6,856 nucleotides of DNA from a virus (lineage: Duplodnaviria; Heunggongvirae; Uroviricota; Caudoviricetes): the IMG/VR virus record IMGVR_UViG_2675903433_000039, positions 1-6,856 of that record. One strand, given 5' to 3'. Below the pieces are notes generated by a model. It was not told where the DNA came from. It worked only from the letters and a program-made list of their open reading frames with translations, and searched no databases. Positions 1 through 6,856 of this stretch are shown here, in pieces. Position 1 is the stretch's first letter; every line of letters starts with the position of its first letter. Position numbers and translations under genes: made by a program.

Positions 1-46
1 AGGTTGCTCCGGGCTATGAAATAGAAAAATGAATCCGTTGAAGCCT
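1..46. other. Host chromosomal DNA flanking the prophage (bacterial arm of the lambda attachment site)
   Basis: Sequence ...gaaatagaaaaatgaatccgttgaagcctgc immediately left of the att core matches my recollection of the E. coli attB left arm. It is not phage-like and lies outside int. Confidence 0.7.
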
Positions 47-60
47 GCTTTTTATACTAA
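47..60. other. attL: attL core (overlap region O) of a lambda-type attachment site
   Basis: gctttttatactaa at 47-60 corresponds to the lambda common core GCTTTTTTATACTAA as I recall it. It is flanked on the left by attB-like DNA and on the right by P'-arm sequence (gttggcattataaaaaagcattgc...), which is the B-O-P' arrangement of attL. The T-run is 5 T here against 6 in my memory of the canonical core. Confidence 0.85.
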
Positions 61-133
61 GTTGGCATTATAAAAAAGCATTGCTTATCAATTTGTTGCA
101 ACGAACAGGTCACTATCAGTCAAAATAAAATCA
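61..133. promoter_or_regulatory. attL P' arm with IHF H' site and three Int arm-type sites
   Basis: tatcaatttgttg at 86-98 fits the IHF consensus WATCAANNNNTTR. Three tandem arm-type Int sites follow: aggtcactat (107-116), cagtcaaaat (117-126), aaatcattat (127-136). The position directly upstream of the int stop is as in lambda. Confidence 0.8.
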
Positions 134-1204
134 TTATTTGATTTCAATTTTGTCCCACTCCCTGCCTCTGTCATCACGATACTGTGATGCCATGGTGTCC
201 GACTTATGCCCGAGAAGATGTTGAGCAAACTTATCGCTTATCTGCTTCTCATAGAGTCTTGCAGACAAACTGCGCAACTCGTGAAAGGTCGGCGGATCCC
301 CTTCGAAGGAAAGACCTGATGCTTTTCGTGCGCGCATAAAATACCTTGATACTGTGCCGGATGAAAGCGGTTCACGATGAGTAGATGCAATTATGGTTTC
401 TCCGCCAAGAATCTCTTTGCATTTATCAAGTGTTTCCTTCATTGATATCCCGAGAGCATCAACATGCAATGTTGTAGGGATGGCAATTTTTACGCCTGTT
501 TTGCTTTGCTCGACATAAAGATATCCATCTACGATATCAGACCACTTCATTTCGCATAAATCACCAACTCGCTGCCCGGTAACAACAGCCAGCTCCATTG
601 CAAGTCTTAGCCAACATGGTGATGATTCTGCTGCTTGATAAATTTTCAGGTATTCGTCAGCCGTAAGTCTTGATCTCCTTACCTCTGATTTTGCTGCGCG
701 AGTGGCAGCGACCGGGTTTGTTGTTATATGGCCTTCAGCTATTGCCTCTCGGAATGCATCGCTCAGTGTTGATCTGATTAACTTGGCTGACGCCGCCTTG
801 CCCTCGTCTATGTATCCACTGAGCATTGCCGCAATTTCTTTTGTGGTGATGTCTTCAAGTGGAGCATCAGGCAGCCCCCTCCTTATTGCTTTAATTTTGC
901 TCATGTAATTTATGAGAGTCTTCTGCTTGATTCCTCTGCTGGCGAGGATTTTTTCGTAGCGATCAAGCCATGAATGTAACGTAACAGAATTATCACTGTT
1001 GATTCTCGCTGTCAGAGGCTTGTGTTTGTGTCCTGAAAATAACTCAATGTTGGCCTGTATTGCTTCAGTGATTGCTATCCTCCTGTCTCGGCCTAATCCA
1101 AACTCTTTACCCGTCCTTGGGTCCCTGTAGCAGTAATATCCATTGTTTCTTATATAAAGATTAGGGGGTAAATCCCGGCGCTCATGACTTCGCCTTCTTC
1201 CCAT
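134..1204 (-). CDS. int: Tyrosine site-specific integrase, lambda Int
   Basis: 356-aa ORF whose translation (MGRRRSHERRDLPPNLYIRNNGYYCYRDPRTGKEF ... HLLGHKSDTMASQYRDDRGREWDKIEIK) matches lambda Int as I recall it, including the C-terminal catalytic region (HxLR ... Y in SQYRDD). Adjacent to attL and overlapping xis by 23 nt as in lambda. Confidence 0.97.
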   Translation of the reverse strand: MGRRRSHERRDLPPNLYIRNNGYYCYRDPRTGKEFGLGRDRRIAITEAIQANIELFSGHKHKPLTARINSDNSVTLHSWLDRYEKILASRGIKQKTLINYMSKIKAIRRGLPDAPLEDITTKEIAAMLSGYIDEGKAASAKLIRSTLSDAFREAIAEGHITTNPVAATRAAKSEVRRSRLTADEYLKIYQAAESSPCWLRLAMELAVVTGQRVGDLCEMKWSDIVDGYLYVEQSKTGVKIAIPTTLHVDALGISMKETLDKCKEILGGETIIASTHREPLSSGTVSRYFMRARKASGLSFEGDPPTFHELRSLSARLYEKQISDKFAQHLLGHKSDTMASQYRDDRGREWDKIEIK

Positions 1205-1400
1205 TTCTGATCCTCTTCAAAAGGCTACCTGTTACTGGTCGATTTAAGTCAACCTTTACCGCTGATTCGTGGAACAGATACTCTCTTCCATCCTTAACCG
1301 GAGGAGGGAATATCCTGCATTCGCGCACCCATCGACGAACTGTTTCAAGGCTTCTTGGGCGTCGCTGGCGTGCATTCCACTCCTGAAGTGTCAAGTACAT
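1182..1400 (-). CDS. xis: Excisionase, lambda Xis
   Basis: 72-aa ORF MYLTLQEWNARQRRPRSLETVRRWVRECRIFPPPVKDGREYLFHESAVKVDLNRPVTGSLLKRIRNGKKAKS matches lambda Xis from memory. Its 3' end overlaps the int start by 23 nt. Confidence 0.95.
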   Translation of the reverse strand: MYLTLQEWNARQRRPRSLETVRRWVRECRIFPPPVKDGREYLFHESAVKVDLNRPVTGSLLKRIRNGKKAKS

Positions 1401-1521
1401 CGCAAAGTCTCCGCAATTACACGCAAGAAAAGCCGCATTGATGCGGCGATGGTAGGTCTGGATATCATTGAGCCATGAACAGGCCTCATCGAGTGTGAGG
1501 CTGTGGTTAGTCCTTTCGTAA

Positions 1522-1719
1522 CTCGCTGATTCTCCTGTAAGTCTCTGGTGCTTTGTTTCCGTGTATCTTCATTTCGGCGCATGGGCTTGTAGCGCGTGTC
1601 ACGATGAAATCGACCGACGCACCCATAACCTCGACAACAAAGACGCCAGACTTTACCACCTCGAAGGCGTGATCAGGACGCAGGCGATACTGCTGAAGGA
1701 GGGGAAGATTAAGTCATGA
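1522..1719 (+). pseudogene. 3' remnant of a truncated nin-region gene upstream of rusA (no credible start codon)
   Basis: An open frame runs from the stop at 1519-1521 to a TGA at 1717-1719 that overlaps the rusA ATG (ATGA coupling). It reads ...VYLHFGAWACSACHDEIDRRTHNLDNKDARLYHLEGVIRTQAILLKEGKIKS*. It has no ATG and no Shine-Dalgarno at its 5' end, consistent with a gene truncated at a deletion or recombination junction. Identity not established. Confidence 0.3.
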
Positions 1720-2078
1720 ACGAATATCAGTTTGTGCTTCCATACCCGCCGTCGGTGAATACCTACTGGCGAAGACGGGGAAGCCAATACTACATCAGCG
1801 ATAAAGGCCAGAAATACCGAAAAGACGTTCAGCAAATCATCCACCAACTCAAGTTAGATATTTTCACCAAATCACGACTCCGCATCAAAGTAATCGCAGA
1901 CGTTCCAGACTCCCGCCGCCGCGACCTAGATAACATCCTGAAGGGTTTACTCGACTCCCTTATCCATGCCGGATTTGCGGAAGACGACGAGCAATTCGAT
2001 GACATTCGCGTAATTCGTGGTGTGAAAGTACCAGGCGGACGGCTTGGAATAAAAATCACCGAACTGGAGAACGCATGA
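1716..2078 (+). CDS. rusA: Holliday junction resolvase RusA (lambdoid nin-region endonuclease)
   Basis: 120-aa ORF with RusA hallmarks shared with E. coli K-12 RusA as I recall it: N-terminal LPYPPSVNTYW (K-12: LPWPPSNNRYY), the RRRDLDN motif with catalytic Asp residues, and C-terminal GGRLGIKITE. Same length as K-12 RusA. Good RBS (aggagg/ggaag) upstream; the stop overlaps the next ATG. Confidence 0.9.
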   Translation: MNEYQFVLPYPPSVNTYWRRRGSQYYISDKGQKYRKDVQQIIHQLKLDIFTKSRLRIKVIADVPDSRRRDLDNILKGLLDSLIHAGFAEDDEQFDDIRVIRGVKVPGGRLGIKITELENA

Positions 2079-2263
2079 ACGCCACAATTCAAACGATACC
2101 AGAGCTTCTTATCCAGACACGAGGCAATCAGACCGAAGTGGCGAGGATGCTTTCCTGCGCAAGAGGAACAGTGCTCAAGTACAACCGAGACAGCAAAGGC
2201 GAGCGTCATGTAATAGTTAACGGCGTCCTGATGGTCAAACAGGGCAAGAGGGGAAGACGATGA
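2075..2263 (+). CDS. ninH: NinH-like small DNA-binding protein (nin region)
   Basis: 62-aa ORF MNATIQTIPELLIQTRGNQTEVARMLSCARGTVLKYNRDSKGERHVIVNGVLMVKQGKRGRR resembles lambda NinH as I recall it (..KTIPDML..YGNQTEVARRL.CSRGTV.KY..D..G..H.IVN.VLMV..). Translationally coupled to rusA (ATGA). The C-terminus diverges from lambda NinH just before the low-GC insertion. Confidence 0.75.
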   Translation: MNATIQTIPELLIQTRGNQTEVARMLSCARGTVLKYNRDSKGERHVIVNGVLMVKQGKRGRR

Positions 2264-2391
2264 GACTCGAAAGCGTAGCTAAATTTCATTCGCCAAAAAG
2301 CCCGATGATGAGCGACTCACTACTGGCCACAGTTTATTGGTTTTCGTAACTGAGTCATTTTATTATTTTATTGCAACTTTTAATCTTTTAT

Positions 2392-2428
2392 AGTGCGAAA
2401 TAAATGGAGCTGGCATTCATTTCGCACT
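2392..2428 (+). terminator. Perfect 10-bp inverted repeat (agtgcgaaat / atttcgcact) with a 17-nt loop, followed by a T-rich tract; possible terminator of rightward nin transcription
   Basis: Arms at 2392-2401 and 2419-2428 are exact reverse complements. ttatgtttttgttgg follows on the plus strand. The loop is long for a canonical intrinsic terminator, hence the low confidence. Confidence 0.3.
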
Positions 2429-2474
2429 TTATGTTTTTGTTGGACTTATGTTATTTTGATTGAATTCAATTCAG

Positions 2475-3434
2475 TTAAAAAAAGAAGGTGATTGCTCCAT
2501 TTATAAATGAATAGTCATCCCCTGTCTTGAATTCTGATGTTACTTTATTAAATGCTAGTGTGAAGGCTACAGGTGCATACCCAATTGTTGCGCCAACTTG
2601 ATATTCATCAACAGTTTTGTTTAGCGATACTGTTGTTTGTTTCGTCTGTATTGTTTTTCCTTCGAGAGTATAGTTGCGATTGACATCTCGTCTTTCCATA
2701 CCTGCAAAAATCTTGTATTTGAATCCGCTTGTATCGGACATATGCATTAAACCACGGGGAGCCAGCAGACCAAAGCCATTATCCGAATTGAAGGTTTTAT
2801 CATTACCAATGGCAATGGTTGCGCCATATGCTACATATTGAAATAAGTTTCCAGTAACAGCAGAAACTTCAGGGTATAATCCAACATTAGCACCTAAAAT
2901 ATCCATACTTGGTGTCATGGATAGCATCCCTTTTACAGTATAACCGTAGCGATTCTCTATTTGATCATCCCATGCATGATATTTTTCTGCCCCAATAATC
3001 TCATGAGCTTTATTTTGTACTTTCTGACCGCCTGCGTCGGGGCCAACAACACCTATGTCAGTACCTAATCGATAGCGAATCCAGTCATTCGCAAGGGAGT
3101 TCCATTCAATACCAGTGTGAGTGTATGCACTAAAAGCTCTGTCTCCAGTTACAGCTGTGTTGTGTCTTTTATTACTGCCTGATGGAGAGTAAATATCTTG
3201 CGCAATATGGAGAGATAATTGGCTCGAGTCTGAGATATCGTGGCTATATCCCAGAAATAAGCCTTGTGAGTAATCATCTCTGTTTTCATGTTTATTGCCA
3301 TAAATATCATTAAGTATTGGTTGAAACTTCCCTGCATCATCATTTGCTAATGATAATGCAAGGCTGTTCGCGATAGCTGAACACGTGGTAAATGACAGAG
3401 CAATAAAGACGCCAGCGATGACACTTTTTTTCAT
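2475..3434 (-). CDS. lpxR: Outer-membrane lipid A 3'-O-deacylase LpxR (beta-barrel, signal peptide); prophage accessory gene
   Basis: 319-aa ORF with an N-terminal signal peptide (MKKSVIAGVFIALSFTTCSAIA) and a C-terminal aromatic ...ITFFF typical of outer-membrane beta-barrels. Length and sequence character match Salmonella LpxR and its E. coli O157 prophage orthologue as I recall them. RBS GGAAG lies 10 nt upstream of the ATG. Low GC relative to the flanking phage genes. Confidence 0.7.
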   Translation of the reverse strand: MKKSVIAGVFIALSFTTCSAIANSLALSLANDDAGKFQPILNDIYGNKHENRDDYSQGLFLGYSHDISDSSQLSLHIAQDIYSPSGSNKRHNTAVTGDRAFSAYTHTGIEWNSLANDWIRYRLGTDIGVVGPDAGGQKVQNKAHEIIGAEKYHAWDDQIENRYGYTVKGMLSMTPSMDILGANVGLYPEVSAVTGNLFQYVAYGATIAIGNDKTFNSDNGFGLLAPRGLMHMSDTSGFKYKIFAGMERRDVNRNYTLEGKTIQTKQTTVSLNKTVDEYQVGATIGYAPVAFTLAFNKVTSEFKTGDDYSFINGAITFFF

Positions 3435-3720
3435 ATGTTATTGTCTTCCTTTTTTTTGAATGGTGCGCGTATTTTACATACATGAGTTTGTAATACAAGG
3501 TGCGTAATCAATATGATGTTTTATAATTGCGTGAGACAATTGATTTATTCGTTTTTTATTGCGGTTTTTATTATCTTTTAATGTAACGGTGTTTTTATTA
3601 AGTGTGTTTGCGTGGTGTTTTATGTTTTTTATAATTTTTATTTTATTAAATTTAAAAGCATTAGTAATGGCTATTCTATATAGCAATATAAGAACTGTTA
3701 CAAAAAAAGGGGGGGCAATT
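3435..3720. promoter_or_regulatory. AT-rich, T-tract-phased (probably intrinsically curved) upstream region of lpxR; likely promoter and silencing region
   Basis: Very AT-rich intergenic DNA with T-runs recurring at roughly helical spacing between about 3550 and 3650. Lies directly upstream of the lpxR start (minus strand) and divergent from the Q-like gene. Confidence 0.3.
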
Positions 3721-3909
3721 ACAGGTAGTTATGGATGATGAGTGAAACAGATATTGGAGAACCGGGGAATGAATGATGTCTGAGTCTTATATATCAGAAC
3801 TCCTTCGCTGTCGCTGGGGGCTCCTGTGCTTATGTCGTTTCCCCGATTCGGTTTTGAACGATTACCGAATGTTGAAGAATTATGCCAAAATATAGAAAGG
3901 ATTTACTGC

Positions 3910-4599
3910 ATGAATACCCAATATTTACAGTATGTTCGTGAGCAACTTATGGCAGCTACTGCTGACTTGAACGGAGCAACGAAAGGCCAGCTCGAAGCCT
4001 GGCAGGAGCATGCACAATTTGATACTGGTACATACAAACGAAAGAAGCCGCGCATTCTGGATGTGGTAACTGGCAAGATGATTACGCTGGATAATACGCC
4101 GACTTCCGGTAAGCAGTCGTACGCAAAAGGTTCATCCATTGCTTTGGTCAGCCCGGTTGAATTCTCAACCTCTTCATGGCGCCGCGCGGTTTTGTCTCTC
4201 GATGAACATCAGAAAGCATGGTTGCTTTGGTGTTACAGCGAAAGCGTTCGATGGGGGCATCAGGTCACCATAACGCAATGGGCATGGAGCGAGTTTAAAG
4301 ATTTGTTAAGTAACAGAAAAATTGCAGGTAAGACACTGGATCGCCTGAAGACGTTAATCTGGCTGGCTGCACAGGATGTGAAGAGCGAACTTGCAGGGCG
4401 TGAGGCCTATGAATACCAGACACTGGCATCATTGGTGGGAGTGACAACAAAAAACTGGTCCGAGACATTTACTGAACGCTGGGTTGCAATGAAGCACATT
4501 TTTCTACAGCTTGATAGTGATGCTTTATTGCTTGTGACGAGAACACGTTCAAAACAAAAGGCAGCATTTTTACAGCAAAATATTGCAAAACTGGATTAA
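3910..4599 (+). CDS. Putative late-gene antiterminator Q (large Q-like family of lambdoid prophages); the longest ORF starts at 3826
   Basis: Located between the nin genes and the lysis cassette, where Q sits in lambdoid phages. The ~230-257 aa size is consistent with the large Q variants annotated in E. coli prophages. The ATG at 3910 has a good RBS (aaagga, 8 nt spacer); the upstream in-frame ATG at 3826 has a weaker one. Assignment is by position and general resemblance, not verified by search. Confidence 0.55.
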   Translation: MNTQYLQYVREQLMAATADLNGATKGQLEAWQEHAQFDTGTYKRKKPRILDVVTGKMITLDNTPTSGKQSYAKGSSIALVSPVEFSTSSWRRAVLSLDEHQKAWLLWCYSESVRWGHQVTITQWAWSEFKDLLSNRKIAGKTLDRLKTLIWLAAQDVKSELAGREAYEYQTLASLVGVTTKNWSETFTERWVAMKHIFLQLDSDALLLVTRTRSKQKAAFLQQNIAKLD

Positions 4600-4647
4600 A
4601 AGCCATATACTTCATGCAAATTTGGTATGTTGTAAAAAATGTATAAA

Positions 4648-4671
4648 CCCGCTGCCGAGTGGGTTTTTTTT
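4648..4671 (+). terminator. Rho-independent terminator-like hairpin ~50 bp downstream of the Q-like gene
   Basis: Stem cccgct (4648-4653) / agtggg (4658-4663) with one G-U pair, loop gccg, followed by a run of 8 T (4664-4671). An A-tract upstream (aaaaaatgtataaa) could make it bidirectional. Confidence 0.5.
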
Positions 4672-4743
4672 ATGCCCTGAGTTGTACTTGTACGGTAAAC
4701 ATGCTGGCTGCTATGTAATAGAGTTTTTTTAGCCTGTAACCTC

Positions 4744-4773
4744 TTGACGGCATTGAATTGCTTTTGTTATGAG
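4744..4773 (+). promoter_or_regulatory. Sigma70-like promoter candidate upstream of the membrane-protein gene (possible late promoter pR' or moron promoter)
   Basis: TTGACG (4744-4749), a 17-18 bp spacer, then TTATGA/TATGAG. The spacer contains ATTGAA at the same position as in lambda pR' (TTGACTtATTGAA...) as I recall it. A tandem TTGTAC TTGTAC repeat at 4682-4693 lies just upstream. Confidence 0.3.
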
Positions 4774-4810
4774 TTGTAAGCCAATGTTATCATCTTGTAT
4801 TGGGGTGGTT

Positions 4811-5527
4811 ATGAAGGATGGTGCGCTGCTCAGGAGTTCTTCACTTTTTATTGCCTACATGGGATGCCTTGGATGGGGGAGTGCTTATTTCTATGGATGG
4901 GGTACTTCTTTTTACTACGGCTTCCCATGGTGGATTGTAGGTGCAGGTGTTGATGATGTTGCCAGAAGTTTATTTTTTGCAGTTATCGTCATTGCTATAT
5001 TTCTTATCGGTTGGGGTATTGGTGTTGTATTCTTTTTCGCAGTGAAAAGAAAACATTCTATGCAAGAGCTAAATGTATTTCGCCTTTATTTTGCTGTGGA
5101 ATTATTGTTTGTGCCGGCAATTATTGAGTTTTCTATATTGAGACAGAAGATTCAGGTACCTCTTTTGCTACTGTCAGCAGCGATTGCGCTGGCGGTTACA
5201 ATTTCGATAAGATCTTATGGGCGATTTTTATCGGTATCATGCTTCTATGATAAGCCATTTATAAAAAAACATTTTTTTGAGATTGTGATGATTGCTTTTG
5301 TGGCATATTTTTGGCTTTTTTCATTTCTGACAGGATATTACAAACCACAGTTTAAGAAAGAATATGAAATGATTAATTATAATGATGGTTGGTATTATGT
5401 TCTTGCTCGTTATGATAATTGTCTGGTTTTGTCTACTTCTTTCAATGCAGGTAGTAAAAGGTTTGTCATTTATCAATCAGCACAAGATAAGAATCTTCAG
5501 GTTGATATTGTAAGGACCAGAATTTAA
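4811..5527 (+). CDS. Uncharacterised integral membrane protein (about five predicted TM helices plus a ~60-aa C-terminal soluble domain); low-GC accessory gene
   Basis: Long ORF (maximal 4769-5527; alternative starts at 4769, 4784 and 4811, with gggg/ggtgg upstream of 4811). Hydrophobic segments include FAVIVIAIFLIGWGIGVVFFFAV, LYFAVELLFVPAIIEFSIL, LLLLSAAIALAVTISI and FFEIVMIAFVAYFWLFSFLTGYY, with an aromatic/Gly-rich N-terminal segment (GWGSAYFYGWGTSFYYGFPWW). Codon usage is AT-rich compared with neighbouring phage genes. No family recognised. Confidence 0.7.
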   Translation: MKDGALLRSSSLFIAYMGCLGWGSAYFYGWGTSFYYGFPWWIVGAGVDDVARSLFFAVIVIAIFLIGWGIGVVFFFAVKRKHSMQELNVFRLYFAVELLFVPAIIEFSILRQKIQVPLLLLSAAIALAVTISIRSYGRFLSVSCFYDKPFIKKHFFEIVMIAFVAYFWLFSFLTGYYKPQFKKEYEMINYNDGWYYVLARYDNCLVLSTSFNAGSKRFVIYQSAQDKNLQVDIVRTRI

Positions 5528-5660
5528 TTGGCTGCATAAATAATATTTTAAGTTGCAAGTTGGCTATTCGTAGGAATAGAACCTTAGGCATGCTGAATGC
5601 GTTTTCTGAACATTGTTTTATAAACTGTGTCTGCTTGCTGTTGTGATCCTGCTTTTAGTG

Positions 5661-5771
5661 ATGGTGATGATGGATTTCACCAGCAGGATAATGTTGGTAC
5701 TGACTGATGGCGCTCTGGTCTGCGGCATTGTGGTATTGCTGTGGCCGATGATGAAAGAACAGAATGAATAA
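5661..5771 (+). CDS. Hypothetical 36-aa hydrophobic micro-protein (MVMMDFTSRIMLVLTDGALVCGIVVLLWPMMKEQNE)
   Basis: Short ORF with one predicted TM segment, ending 3 nt before the -35 of the downstream promoter-like element. It has no obvious Shine-Dalgarno and contains the rare AGG-ATA codon pair, so coding status is uncertain. Confidence 0.2.
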   Translation: MVMMDFTSRIMLVLTDGALVCGIVVLLWPMMKEQNE

Positions 5772-5774
5772 TTC

Positions 5775-5803
5775 TTGACTTTTTTGTTTACTGTTTATTA
5801 AAA
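5775..5803 (+). promoter_or_regulatory. Late-promoter-like element (pR' candidate): TTGACT -35, ~17 bp spacer, A/T-rich -10
   Basis: TTGACT at 5775-5780, then a 17-bp spacer and TTAAAA (or TATTAA with a shorter spacer). An intrinsic terminator lies about 175 nt downstream and the holin start about 410 bp beyond that, a geometry like the lambda pR'-tR'-S arrangement as I recall it. Confidence 0.35.
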
Positions 5804-5957
5804 AATCAACCGCATGGTGAATCCTCCTTGGAGGGGCTAAATGATCGAGTTTTAAGGGCACGTAGCGAGTTCTGTTTGATCATTGCAGAACTTAGCGGGA
5901 GGCGCCATGCGTACATCACTAATGTTATTTCCTTCTATCATTTTCCTTGTGAGTTCT

Positions 5958-5984
5958 GGCTGCGCATGGCGCGGCCTTTTTTTT
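5958..5984 (+). terminator. Rho-independent terminator (tR'-like) in the late leader
   Basis: GC-rich stem ggctgcgc (5958-5965) / gcgcggcc (5969-5976) with one G-U pair and a short loop, followed by 8 consecutive T (5977-5984). Confidence 0.55.
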
Positions 5985-6173
5985 ATGACCTGCCACTGGC
6001 AGATGGTCATCCTGTGATTTGATTCCGGTTCCGGCTTTTTAACTCTGTTCCTGTACACGGGAGAAATTCTATGTCGATTAATCGTTATGATATTGGTTAC
6101 AAGAAGTACCACGTATTGTGTTGAGATAGAAAGCATGGTGCCAGAGGTAAATGCAGCAGCATAATAAAAAAGA

Positions 6174-6213
6174 GCCAGCGCAGAAGAGAACGGGTAAAAG
6201 AGTCTGCGCTGGC
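6174..6213. repeat. Perfect 11-bp inverted repeat (gccagcgcaga / tctgcgctggc) with an 18-nt loop, adjacent to a second small GGGG/CCCC hairpin
   Basis: Arms at 6174-6184 and 6203-6213 are exact reverse complements. On the minus strand the structure is followed by ctcttttttattat, so it could act as a minus-strand terminator. ggggatattcccc follows at 6216-6228. Confidence 0.4.
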
Positions 6214-6329
6214 GTGGGGATATTCCCCGTGGAGAAATGATATGTAACACACATCGGGAACCTTTCTATATAAACATTATCATTATTGTCAATCATAACA
6301 GTCAGGTATTATGACGTTTATGCATCAGG

Positions 6330-6360
6330 GCCATCAGGAATTAACTGGTGGCTTTTTATT
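6330..6360 (+). terminator. Terminator-like hairpin 35 bp upstream of the holin start
   Basis: Stem gccatcag (6330-6337) / ctggtggc (6345-6352) with one G-U pair, loop gaattaa, followed by tttttatt (6353-6360). Confidence 0.45.
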
Positions 6361-6392
6361 GTTGTCAGCTTCCGGATAACGGGAGACGGGGT

Positions 6393-6608
6393 ATGTACCA
6401 GATGGAAAAAATAACAACAGGTGTGTCATACACCACGTCAGCGGTGGGGACGGGATACTGGCTACTGCAGTTGCTGGACAAAGTCTCCCCATCCCAGTGG
6501 GTGGCAATAGGCGTATTGGGTAGCCTGGTGTTTGGCTTGCTGACGTATCTGACAAACCTTTATTTCAAGATTAAAGAAGATAAGCGTAAGGCTGCGAGAG
6601 GTGAATAA
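6393..6608 (+). CDS. Phage-21-type holin (pinholin, S21/EssD family) with dual-start motif
   Basis: Translation [71 protein letters not shown] closely resembles S21/EssD as I recall them (..[44 protein letters not shown]). RBS gggaga upstream. Met1 and Met4 form the holin/antiholin dual start. The ORF track extends the frame upstream to 6348, but that start has no RBS. Confidence 0.92.
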
Positions 6609-6856
6609 TGTCGCCATCATTACGCAAGGCTGTTGCTGCTGCTATTGGTGGTGGGGCTGTTGCCATAGCGTCTGTGCTCATCACTGGTCCGAGTGGTGAC
6701 GATGGCCTGGAAGGTGTCAGCTACATACCATACGAAGATATCGTTGGCGTATGGACTGTATGTCACGGACACACCGGAAAAGACATCATTCCCGGTAAAA
6801 CGTATACCAAAGCAGAATGCAAAGCACTCTTGAATAAAGACCTTGCCACTGTCGCC
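6608..6856 (+). CDS. SAR endolysin (phage-21 R-type lysozyme), 5' partial; continues past the window end
   Basis: The ATG at 6608 overlaps the holin stop (TAATG). Translation [83 protein letters not shown] matches the N-terminal signal-anchor-release domain and start of the lysozyme domain of R21/RrrD as I recall them. Open to the end of the window. Confidence 0.9.

Follow-up and report, generated by a model that had tools for sequence, protein, structure and literature searches.

Results

Genes of the locus

The window, that is the whole stretch of 6,856 nucleotides that was analysed (positions 1 to 6,856 of IMG/VR record IMGVR_UViG_2675903433_000039), carries a Q antiterminator gene of the phage 82 family on its plus strand at 3910-4599 (229 aa). 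The open reading frame matched PF06323 in Pfam (E 1.7e-91, profile positions 1-216 of 220 covered) and PHROG 304 in the PHROG comparison; its nucleotide identity to Q of phage 82 (X92588) was 89.6%, and the phage 434 record labels the same Q as Q82-like. An earlier note on this DNA had described a 257-aa Q antiterminator while allowing that the protein might not be one; the Pfam match upholds the function, and the length was corrected to 229 aa. The start was set at ATG 3910 and not at GTG 3826 because the Pfam match begins at residue 32 of the long open reading frame, Q homologues are nearly all 229 aa long, and 3773-3895 is taken up by ylcG. A search of solved structures by sequence with Q gave chance-level matches only (E above 0.1) and no Q82-family structure. 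tRNA genes were not found in the window.

Downstream of Q, on the same strand, lie genes for a membrane protein of 238 aa (4811-5527; phrog_1521, a family of unknown function) and for a TciB-like small membrane protein of 52 aa (5613-5771; DUF3927, PF13064, E 3.4e-14), the latter assigned to phrog_1470 ('TciB-like') and annotated as TciB in phage 434. The 238-aa protein has about four strongly hydrophobic segments and was without a match in Pfam, NCBIfam and PADLOC; translation might instead begin at one of the in-frame ATGs 4769 and 4784, but the annotation of E2348/69 on which the EPEC study relied has the gene start at the equivalent of 4811. A minus-strand open reading frame gave no match in NCBIfam and PADLOC, and literature searches on TciA, TciB, phage 434 and EcOnc13 yielded nothing useful. 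A small-RNA gene, PasD1, follows at 5775-5984.

The lysis genes stand at the end of the window and comprise a phage 21-type class II holin (6393-6608, plus strand; PF04971, E 1.1e-32) and the start of an endolysin gene (6608 to the window end at 6856, plus strand; PF00959, E 2.1e-13); both phage 434 and E. coli genomes have them annotated as holin and lysozyme. Just 5' of the holin, the terminator scan located a third intrinsic terminator (6327-6360, plus strand; fold -16.2 kcal/mol, z -3.3), and the phage 434 record has an annotated terminator at the same relative place. The earlier note had expected accessory genes and a terminator between Q and the lysis genes, and had considered the membrane gene a possible Q-dependent late gene; the membrane gene, the tciB-like gene and PasD, together with several terminators, do occupy this interval, and the membrane gene lies within the Q-dependent late unit. 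On the minus strand, 6164-6253 resembles the small RNA Esr41 (Rfam RF02676; its 32.3 bits fall far short of the gathering score, 102), and EPEC RIL-seq chimeras lie on that strand at what corresponds to 6165-6206; this element lies outside the Q circuit and inside the late leader region.

Predicted late promoter, pause element and terminator next to Q

The promoter scan, a composite motif and conservation in the family located, at sequence level, an 82-type late promoter pR' at 4583-4611 on the plus strand, overlapping the end of Q. Its -35 hexamer TTGCAA (4583-4588) and -10 hexamer TATACT (4606-4611), with 9/12 matches in the scan, are separated by a 17-bp spacer (4589-4605) that holds the Q stop codon and reads AACTGGATTAAAAGCCA, agreeing with the 82-type spacer at 15/17 positions. 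In phage 82 the Q-binding element sits between the -35 and -10 of pR' (PMC4914094); a putative element of this kind is placed in the spacer here from position and the 15/17 identity only. The composite 82-type motif occurred once in the window and in 0/200 shuffles, including when one mismatch was allowed. Promoter-like hexamer pairs in general were not in excess (8 in the window versus 9.2 ± 3.4 in shuffled sequence), and the promoter at 4583-4611 was the only one beyond chance. Searches of the literature found no study mapping pR' for either phage 434 or this prophage, full-text searches with literal phage 82 pR' strings returned unrelated papers only, and the comparison with 82 pR' rests on the positional features given in the text of PMC5001585.

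According to that text, the transcribed region of 82 pR' begins with AAA, its -10-like hexamer spans +9 to +14 and carries an extended -10, GCC occupies +15 to +17, the bases from +18 to +25 are AT-rich, and the pause at +25 has a U. Position-by-position matching placed the corresponding initial transcribed, qut-like region at 4618-4642 (plus strand), with the predicted start at AAA 4618-4620 (+1 = 4618), the extended -10-like pause element TGgTATGTT at 4623-4631 (+6 to +14), and an AT-rich stretch from +18 to +25 containing a G at +24 (4641), as in phage 82, and a T at +25 (4642), which is the predicted pause site and is conserved across the Q82 family. Alignment with the pR'/qut region of phage 82 had been suggested as a check; the comparison by position recovered the published features, apart from the discriminator, at 4583-4642. 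The full published set was also found directly after Q in the 82-like phage PhiR47_2, with which the window aligns base for base apart from a few differing positions. The G/C-rich discriminator was the feature not found in the window, where +15 to +17 (4632-4634) read GTA and share only the G with the GCC of phage 82. In phage 82 this discriminator tunes pause strength, and changing GCC to AAA made the pause about five-fold shorter in vitro (PMC5001585); by analogy, pausing here may be weaker or shifted, with GTA replacing GCC. Discriminator positions vary in the family (GCC, CGC, GTC) and hold less information than the pause hexamer, and GTA has become fixed along with this subgroup of Q.

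An intrinsic terminator predicted to act as tR' was identified at 4645-4671 (plus strand) from the terminator scan, the fold and the family loci. Its stem, AAACCCGCU/AGUGGGUUU, begins at +28, and eight T come after it; the region 4618-4675 folds at -15.3 kcal/mol (z -2.7), and the predicted terminated leader is about 50-54 nt long. A terminator-like hairpin had been noted before at 4648-4671 and had been taken to precede a promoter; the hairpin and its T-run are present, with an extent of 4645-4671, and it is the first terminator after pR', hence the predicted tR'. The same arrangement recurs in phage Flotzy and in many Q82-family loci. A match of 4606-4675 to Rfam STnc240 (28 bits, E 0.14-0.5) was put down to terminator-driven resemblance. 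Among the matches listed from EPEC RIL-seq, no short leader RNA from the spacer between Q and the membrane gene was found, Hfq binding not being required of such an RNA, and no sign was found that the pR' leader accumulates or binds Hfq.

Conservation across Q82-family loci

The survey covered 196 usable loci, reported as 80 close viral relatives, 66 genomes from many enterobacterial genera (54-73% or 32-35% Q protein identity) and 55 Flotzy-like phages. A TTGCAA-like -35, a 17-bp spacer and a -10 were present after Q in 194/196 loci; among these 194, a TAnnnT hexamer stood 14 nt past the -10 in 188 and was preceded by TG in 185. The -35 begins 14 nt ahead of the Q stop codon at 87 loci and 33 nt beyond the stop at 50, and since its position relative to the stop differs, it is the DNA element and not a coding sequence that is conserved. 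With a Q of just 33% identity, Flotzy still has the promoter, the pause element and an immediate terminator. Conservation falls off after +17 to +26, beyond which at least four unrelated sequences occur; as judged from these alignments, this is the extent that would be expected of a Q-utilisation site. The identical Q is encoded in 44/80 viral loci, among the matches listed. The signature seen in 194/196 loci offers a simple guide by which pR' and its pause element can be annotated behind any gene of the Q82 family.

PasD1 and the cassette between Q and the lysis genes

The segment 5775-5984 (plus strand) is the PasD1 small-RNA gene, with full-length identity to PasD1 of EPEC. Promoter-like hexamers (TTGACT 5775-5780, 18 bp, TAAAAA 5799-5804) precede an RNA of 173 nt (5812-5984) with the proposed seed UGUGAG at 5948-5953 and a terminator at 5958-5984 that folds at -17 kcal/mol; the hexamer pair failed the promoter scan, TAAAAA lacking the final T. 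Positions 5812-5984 are identical to PasD1 of EPEC E2348/69 (NC_011601, 1060260-1060432; coordinates from table S6 of PMC8550237), and the sequence of the PasD1 northern probe was found at 5945-5968. Hfq association and targets have been shown in EPEC for the identical PasD1 sequence (PMC8550237). Compared with PasD1/PasD2 (EPEC E2348/69; EcOnc13 in EHEC), 5812-5984 is identical to PasD1 including seed and terminator, without any sequence-level difference, and the flanks are the same in the window and EPEC as well, with the tciB-like gene upstream and the holin downstream. The Rfam model STnc100 scored 37.7 bits, below its gathering score of 47, with all 206 model positions aligned (E 1e-5), and PasD has been described as a diverged relative of STnc100 and not a member (bioRxiv 10.64898/2026.05.13.724894). 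Rfam matches to SorX, asX2, GcvB and similar families over the PasD terminator were rejected as terminator-driven resemblance.

The cassette formed by the membrane gene, the tciB-like gene and PasD was also found behind lambda-type Q/pR'. An identical membrane gene is present in 79 viral loci, 31 of them behind an 82-type and 48 behind a lambda-type pR', and the EPEC prophages PP2 and PP4 show both arrangements (82-type and lambda-type); in PP4 a lambda-type pR' (TTGACT-17-GAAACT, then AATAATGGG) lies upstream of the same cassette. Conversely, the cassette was absent in 27/28 close Q82 relatives with the 82-type pause element. The tR' hairpin is intact in 31/31 cassette copies behind an 82-type pR' and fits the degenerate form in 44/48 copies behind a lambda-type pR'. 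The occurrence of the cassette behind both Q types indicates that the cargo is independent of the type of Q, and the PasD small-RNA cassette thus moves between prophages with different Q types.

In EPEC RNA-seq, baseMean values were about 8,700-11,000 for the PasD RNAs and 3.5-5.4 for the holin genes, which suggests that the terminators keep the lysis genes silent in lysogens; near-silent holin genes despite strong upstream transcription fit efficient termination. In uninduced EPEC lysogens the membrane gene had a baseMean of 147-226, its copies being identical so that reads are not assignable per copy and read-through from pR' is possible, and the lambda-type Q upstream of one copy had a baseMean of 6. 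As to features of a moron, the candidate promoter TTGTTA-18-TGtTATCAT (see below) is a consensus match only, the terminator at 5958-5984 follows the cargo, and the membrane gene is transcribed without induction. The membrane gene, the tciB-like gene and PasD are placed in a Q-controlled late operon, and in lysogens appear to be expressed or insulated by signals of their own.

The promoters proposed earlier at 4744 and 5775

The earlier note had counted two candidate late promoters, with TTGACG at 4744 and TTGACT at 5775, and had let Q act on one or the other; the promoter at 4583-4611 was missing from it and is the likelier target of Q, with the cognate 82-type pR', pause element and tR' at 4583-4671 abutting Q. 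Neither of the promoters proposed earlier is likely to be the Q target. That Q acts at TTGACG 4744, and that the hairpin at 4645-4671 merely ends an early transcript or that of Q, is very improbable. TTGACG (4744-4749) matches the -35 consensus at 5/6 positions, and the ATTGAA (4752-4757) behind it is present as described, ATTGAAT recalling the lambda pR' spacer; it is, however, shifted by one base relative to lambda, and the promoter lacks a usable -10, as only TTATGA or TATGAG is available, none with a final T lies 16-18 bp from TTGACG, and the pair was absent from the scan output. Further features of a lambda-type pR' were not found here, there being no AACGAT/GGG-like element and the adjacent Q being of the 82 type. 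Were transcription to start near 4780, TGtTATCAT (4785-4793) would fall at +6 to +14, as does the 82 pause element, and the segment 4744-4793 is invariant among cassette copies; but it is invariant behind both Q types, and a segment unchanged behind lambda-type Q/pR' in 48/79 loci cannot be specific to Q82, while 27/28 close Q82 relatives with an 82-type pause element are without it. Moreover, no terminator lies between TTGACG and the membrane gene, so there is nothing for Q to antiterminate there. The tandem TTGTAC TTGTAC, regarded earlier as a possible Q-binding element, does occur at 4682-4693, but it is 3' of tR' and not conserved, reading TTGTATTTGTGT in the PP4 copy of the cassette. Within 4744-4793 (plus strand) only the better neighbour of TTGACG passed the scan, an overlapping candidate promoter of the extended -10 kind with TTGTTA at 4764-4769, an 18-bp spacer and TGtTATCAT at 4785-4793 (predicted start near 4799-4800). 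A survey of membrane-gene homologues returned identical proteins only, which do not separate TTGACG from TTGTTA/TGtTATCAT. This region may at most let the membrane gene be transcribed independently of Q in lysogens, with TTGTTA/TGtTATCAT a likelier promoter than TTGACG.

Equally hard to sustain is the view that Q acts at TTGACT 5775 and that the 173-nt RNA is a late leader like the lambda 6S RNA. The geometry does recall lambda pR'-tR', and much of the earlier description holds, since TTGACT stands at 5775-5780, a leader of about 175 nt fits the length of the RNA, and the strong terminator is followed, 409 bp on, by the holin ATG at 6393 (about 410 bp had been given); the RNA is also abundant in lysogens, as a constitutive RNA like lambda 6S would be. 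What had seemed the best pR'-tR'-like module is nevertheless the gene of a small RNA, found behind different Q families and more than 1 kb from Q, and not a late leader. The RNA is the Hfq-associated PasD1 with mapped targets (PMC8550237), and at least three kinds of Q precede the element, namely 82-type, lambda-type and that of phage Evi, in every case at a distance of more than 1 kb and with a tciB-like gene ahead of the element. In Stx2 phages the related STnc100 is located 75 nt 3' of stx2B, a long way from pR' (PMC12370729). No hexamer in the first 25 nt combines the A at position 2 with the T at position 6 that a -10-like pause element would have, and an intact 82-type pR' already adjoins Q. 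The PasD/STnc100 family may still descend from the late-leader module of another Q type. No pR'21 sequence with which to compare the PasD promoter is printed in the text of the preprint on the Q21 structure (10.1101/651190).

Discussion

A probable phage 82-type switch with cargo

The identities of Q and of PasD1, the anatomy of the sequence and the family-wide conservation are established here, and the locus as a whole is read, with a probability of roughly 0.85, as a standard phage 82-type lambdoid late-gene switch with accessory cargo between the switch and the lysis genes. From the sequence we infer that sigma-70 RNA polymerase would initiate from A4618 at the pR' overlapping the end of Q (-35 from 4583, -10 from 4606), that sigma-70 would re-bind TGgTATGTT at +6 to +14 and that polymerase would pause near +25 (T4642). 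Without Q, transcription would terminate about 25-30 nt further on at 4645-4671 and leave a leader of about 50-54 nt. Once accumulated, Q would bind the DNA between -35 and -10 and join the paused polymerase, and the modified polymerase would ignore the terminators at 4645-4671, 5958-5984 and 6327-6360, so that the membrane and tciB-like genes, the PasD region and finally holin and endolysin would be transcribed. An apparent puzzle is thereby closed with a system of a known kind, and the current view of Q antitermination is unchanged.

It is unlikely, though less so than a Q target at either 4744 or 5775, that the 82-type module is an inactive relic on which Q never loads and that the locus serves as a platform for lysogen cargo (membrane gene, PasD1 and Esr41-like RNA). 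The window belongs to a remnant prophage whose early region is lost, attL-int-xis being joined to the nin region near 1574, and with the early region gone the switch may never be triggered in its host; GCC is replaced by GTA, and in uninduced EPEC the cargo RNAs are highly expressed and the lysis genes silent. Against this, Q is intact, as are its promoter hexamers, pause element and terminator, an identical Q-pR'-tR' is found in the viable phage 434 and the identical Q, among the matches listed, in 44/80 viral loci, and fixation of the GTA form with its Q subgroup is as for a working variant rather than decay. A relic would, besides, concern activity in one host and not the identity of the elements. 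For the 82-type switch itself, it is doubtful, if conceivable, that the form in the window works differently from that of phage 82, with GTA as discriminator and the hairpin 3 nt past the predicted pause. If it did, pausing and termination would be coupled in one leader of 50-54 nt, altering how and when Q must load, and the constitutive leader (hairpin + U8) could be a regulatory small RNA in lysogens, like StxS.

Comparison with known systems

The phage 82 cassette agrees with the window in the family of Q, the TTGCAA hexamer, a near-identical 17-bp spacer, the overlap of the promoter with the end of Q, the AAA start, the extended -10-like element at +6 to +14, the AT-rich stretch at +18 to +25, the T at +25 and a downstream terminator. 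The window differs in a Q about 86-90% identical to 82-like Q proteins, in the -10 (TATACT versus TATATT) and the pause hexamer (TATGTT versus TATTTT), in the discriminator (GTA versus GCC), in a terminator stem beginning at +28 versus about +50, and in about 1.7 kb of cargo before the lysis genes. The logic proposed for the window is that of lambda pR'-qut-tR', where a constitutive promoter stands by Q, polymerase makes a sigma-70-dependent pause close to the promoter, Q has its site between -35 and -10, a short leader ends at a terminator and processive antitermination carries transcription on to the lysis genes; in lambda, however, Q belongs to an unrelated family, the DNA elements are others, the pause lies at +16/17 with the hexamer at +1 to +6, and the leader (6S RNA) has 194 nt. 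As a lambda-type pR' precedes the same cargo in EPEC PP4, the modules are interchangeable. StxS is reportedly a small RNA that arises from early termination of the pR' transcript of a Shiga-toxin phage, as Sy et al. are said to have described in PNAS in 2020; it, too, is a constitutive, short, terminator-ended pR' leader in a lambdoid prophage, to which the leader of 50-54 nt predicted here is analogous, and the Q family and sequence differ.

Phage 434 (OL657226) and small prophages at the lambda attachment site of O157:H7/O55:H7 are 99.5% identical to the window over 3700-6095, and plaque-forming phage 434 is 100% identical over 4560-4830. The gene order lpxR, ylcG, Q82-like Q, membrane protein and TciB is shared, and phage 434 differs from the window in a sialate esterase gene between PasD and the holin. 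In the region of phage 434 that was examined no other complete Q is annotated, just an N-terminal lambda-Q fragment, and its record has two terminators annotated and no pR'. The late promoter is now placed for phage 434 and for the related small EHEC/EPEC prophages, whose genome records are without such an annotation.

The probable late promoter, its pause element and tR'

The late region belongs with the phage 82-type late cassettes. Its antiterminator gene Q (3910–4599) belongs to the phage 82 family (PF06323, E 1.7e-91; 89.6% identical in nucleotides to Q of phage 82) and encodes a protein of 229 aa, not of 257 aa as given in the earlier note. A promoter scan returned TTGCAA (4583–4588), a 17-bp spacer and TATACT (4606–4611) over the last Q codons, a site that the earlier note had missed. 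The published transcript of the late promoter pR' of phage 82 starts AAA, has a −10-like pause-inducing hexamer at +9 to +14 with an extended −10, GCC at +15 to +17 and an AT-rich stretch at +18 to +25, and pauses at U +25 with G immediately 5' (PMC5001585). Every one of these features lies directly 3' of Q in the 82-like phage PhiR47_2 (TTGCAA-17-TATATT, then AAATCTGATATTTTGCCAATGTTGTA), and the window, with AAATTTGGTATGTTGTAAAAAATGTA and +1 at 4618, aligns with it base by base, with TGgTATGTT at 4623–4631, G at +24 (4641) and T at +25 (4642); the sole notable difference is GTA instead of GCC at +15 to +17. The composite motif is found a single time in the window and in 0 of 200 shuffles.

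Three bases past the predicted pause site begins a hairpin (4645–4666) followed by eight T (fold of 4618–4675: −15.3 kcal/mol, z −2.7). It had been regarded as an obstacle preceding the late promoter; with +1 at 4618, hairpin and T-run are read here as tR', the first terminator after pR'. From the identities, positions and conservation of these elements we infer constitutive transcription from about 4618 and a sigma-70-caused pause near +25; polymerase would terminate at 4645–4671 when Q is absent, and when Q is present and binds would be modified at the pause and read past 4645–4671, 5958–5984 and 6327–6360 into holin and endolysin, cargo genes included. Compared with the phage 82-type cassette, the discriminator is a variant one and the terminator lies very near the pause site. 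It is rather unlikely that the tight coupling of pause and terminator, or the short leader RNA, serves a purpose over and above that in phage 82. Phage 434 is identical to the window over 4560–4830, and no second complete Q gene is annotated in the region of phage 434 examined; since this phage forms plaques, the switch variant must work. PasD1 and the Esr41-like RNA (below) are already published and the genes and terminators are annotated in the phage 434 genome record, from which pR' is missing.

Conservation across the Q82 family

Loci were drawn from 80 viral contigs with close relatives, 66 genomes of many enterobacterial genera (54–73% or 32–35% protein identity) and 55 Flotzy-like phages. 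The −35, 17-bp spacer, −10 and TAnnnT hexamer were found in 194 of 196 usable loci, the hexamer lying 14 nt past the −10 in 188 of the 194 and being preceded by TG in 185. The −35 starts 14 nt 5' of the Q stop codon in 87 loci and 33 nt beyond it in 50; as the sequence is the same in either position, what is conserved is a DNA element. The Q of Flotzy shares only 33% identity with the window Q, and promoter, pause element and immediate terminator are all kept downstream of it. Conservation drops past +17 to +26, with at least four unrelated sequences beyond, the extent to be expected of a Q-utilisation site.

The membrane-protein gene, the DUF3927/TciB-like gene and the PasD1 small-RNA gene form a cargo cassette between Q and the lysis genes. 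Among 79 viral loci with an identical membrane gene, 31 lie behind an 82-type pR' and keep the tR' hairpin intact, and 48 lie behind a lambda-type pR', where 44 carry a degenerate hairpin of the same sequence; the cassette is absent from 27 of 28 close Q82 relatives with an 82-type pause element. These tallies place the joint between Q-specific and shared DNA just past the pause site; from about 4643 on, all the DNA is interchangeable cargo.

The two promoters proposed earlier

Every motif listed in the earlier note is at its position. Promoter-type hexamer pairs are not in excess (8 observed, 9.2 expected in shuffled sequence), both proposed promoters (TTGACG at 4744, TTGACT at 5775) lack a T at the last −10 position, and the TTGTAC repeat, suggested as a Q-binding element, is not conserved in the other cassette copy. 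TTGACG was rejected for want of an acceptable −10; it is overlapped by a better pair from the promoter scan, TTGTTA (4764), 18 bp and TGtTATCAT (4785–4793), an extended −10 candidate with a predicted start near 4799. Just downstream are a GGGGTGG ribosome-binding site and ATG 4811, which is the membrane-gene start in the annotation of an RNA study of enteropathogenic strain E2348/69 (EPEC, NC_011601).

In uninduced EPEC RNA-seq the membrane gene has a baseMean of 147–226 (two identical copies, so that a read could come from either prophage), and the lambda-type Q that precedes one of the copies has 6. This fits a Q-independent membrane-gene promoter, read-through from pR' being an alternative source. 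In EPEC prophage PP4 an 82-type terminator remnant behind a lambda-type pR' (3505–3625 of its sequence) is now unfolded (z +0.95), and the PasD1 terminator, 1.3 kb off, is the first strong one after that promoter; in PP4-like prophages pR' may transcribe the membrane and tciB-like genes constitutively. PasD1 and PasD2 reach about 8,700–11,000 and the holins 3.5–5.4, which fits very efficient termination ahead of the lysis genes.

At the second candidate, a full-length, below-threshold Rfam STnc100 match covers 5782–5987. A 2026 preprint relates STnc100 to the EPEC PasD small RNAs and names phage 2B8, a 98.3% match to this part of the window, as a pasD carrier. PasD1 (NC_011601 1060260–1060432, 173 nt), confirmed on northern blots and by RIL-seq (PMC8550237, table S6), is identical to 5812–5984, with the published northern probe at 5945–5968; what had been taken for a late leader of ~175 nt is therefore an Hfq-associated small RNA already described. 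The element is linked to no single Q type: it lies behind a Q82-type gene in EPEC PP2 and behind a 207-aa lambda-type Q with lambda-like pR' in PP4, a related element follows the tciA-tciB pair, >1 kb from Q, in phages Evi and PPyecE, and STnc100 lies just downstream of stx2B in Stx2 phages (PMC12370729).

Further small-RNA observations

The phage 434 'putative membrane protein' ORF (5828–6022, plus) lies almost entirely within the RNA of PasD1 and probably does not represent a real gene. Ribosome profiling of O157:H7 EDL933, whose genome has eleven STnc100 copies, recorded expressed 'STnc100_1' (902843, plus strand; 1,046 transcriptome reads), probably the same locus as 5782–5987, in a small prophage at the lambda site. 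In phage PPompW CATGGTGAATGC occurs at about 2651, about 115 nt past a Q82-type gene, with three tRNA genes following closely; its resemblance to the conserved PasD/STnc100 5' end (GCATGGTGAATCC) could be coincidence or reflect an RNA motif common to both.

Opposite the late leader lies an Esr41-like small RNA (6164–6253, minus), which scores 32 bits in Rfam against a gathering score of 102. In EPEC, RIL-seq gave chimeras attributed to an ORF that overlaps it, E2348C_1013; their positions correspond to 6165–6206 (minus), with the small-RNA position in all those listed (e.g. with the entC 5'UTR), and the RNA-seq level of this ORF is about 7.5-fold lower without Hfq; the 132-aa ORF (5852–6250, minus) is therefore probably not a gene.

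Prophage layout and Q expression

The window covers the left end of a lambda-like prophage. First comes lambda attL (bacterial arm 'tgaagcctgc', core, P' arm), followed by lambda int (134–1204, minus) and xis (1182–1400, minus); near 1574 the sequence jumps into the nin region, straight into the middle of a DUF1364 gene, thus truncated, beside rusA (1716–2078). The immunity, replication and early region is wholly absent (window 1–1720), which makes this a prophage remnant in the lambda attachment site. After ninH (2075–2263) the interval 2260–3910 holds a lambda-type Q stub (its initial 28 codons), lpxR (2475–3434, minus) and ylcG (3773–3895), ahead of the Q82-type gene; lambda Q appears to have been replaced, by recombination within the Q gene, with a whole Q-plus-late-promoter module. 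Downstream of Q follow the membrane-protein gene, the DUF3927/TciB-like gene, a phage 21-type holin (6393–6608) and, at the window end, the start of the endolysin. Over 3700–6095 phage 434 is 99.5% identical, and the arrangement recurs in O157:H7 and O55:H7 strains and in PP2.

EPEC lysogens show a baseMean of 69 for the Q82-type gene against about 1 for the upstream nin genes, and chimeras with MgrR fall at positions corresponding to about 3578–3600 (plus strand). The AT-rich lpxR-ylcG spacer holds a promoter-like site (TTGTAA at 3488, 18 bp, TATGAT ending at 3517) that may provide low Q transcription independent of the early operon.
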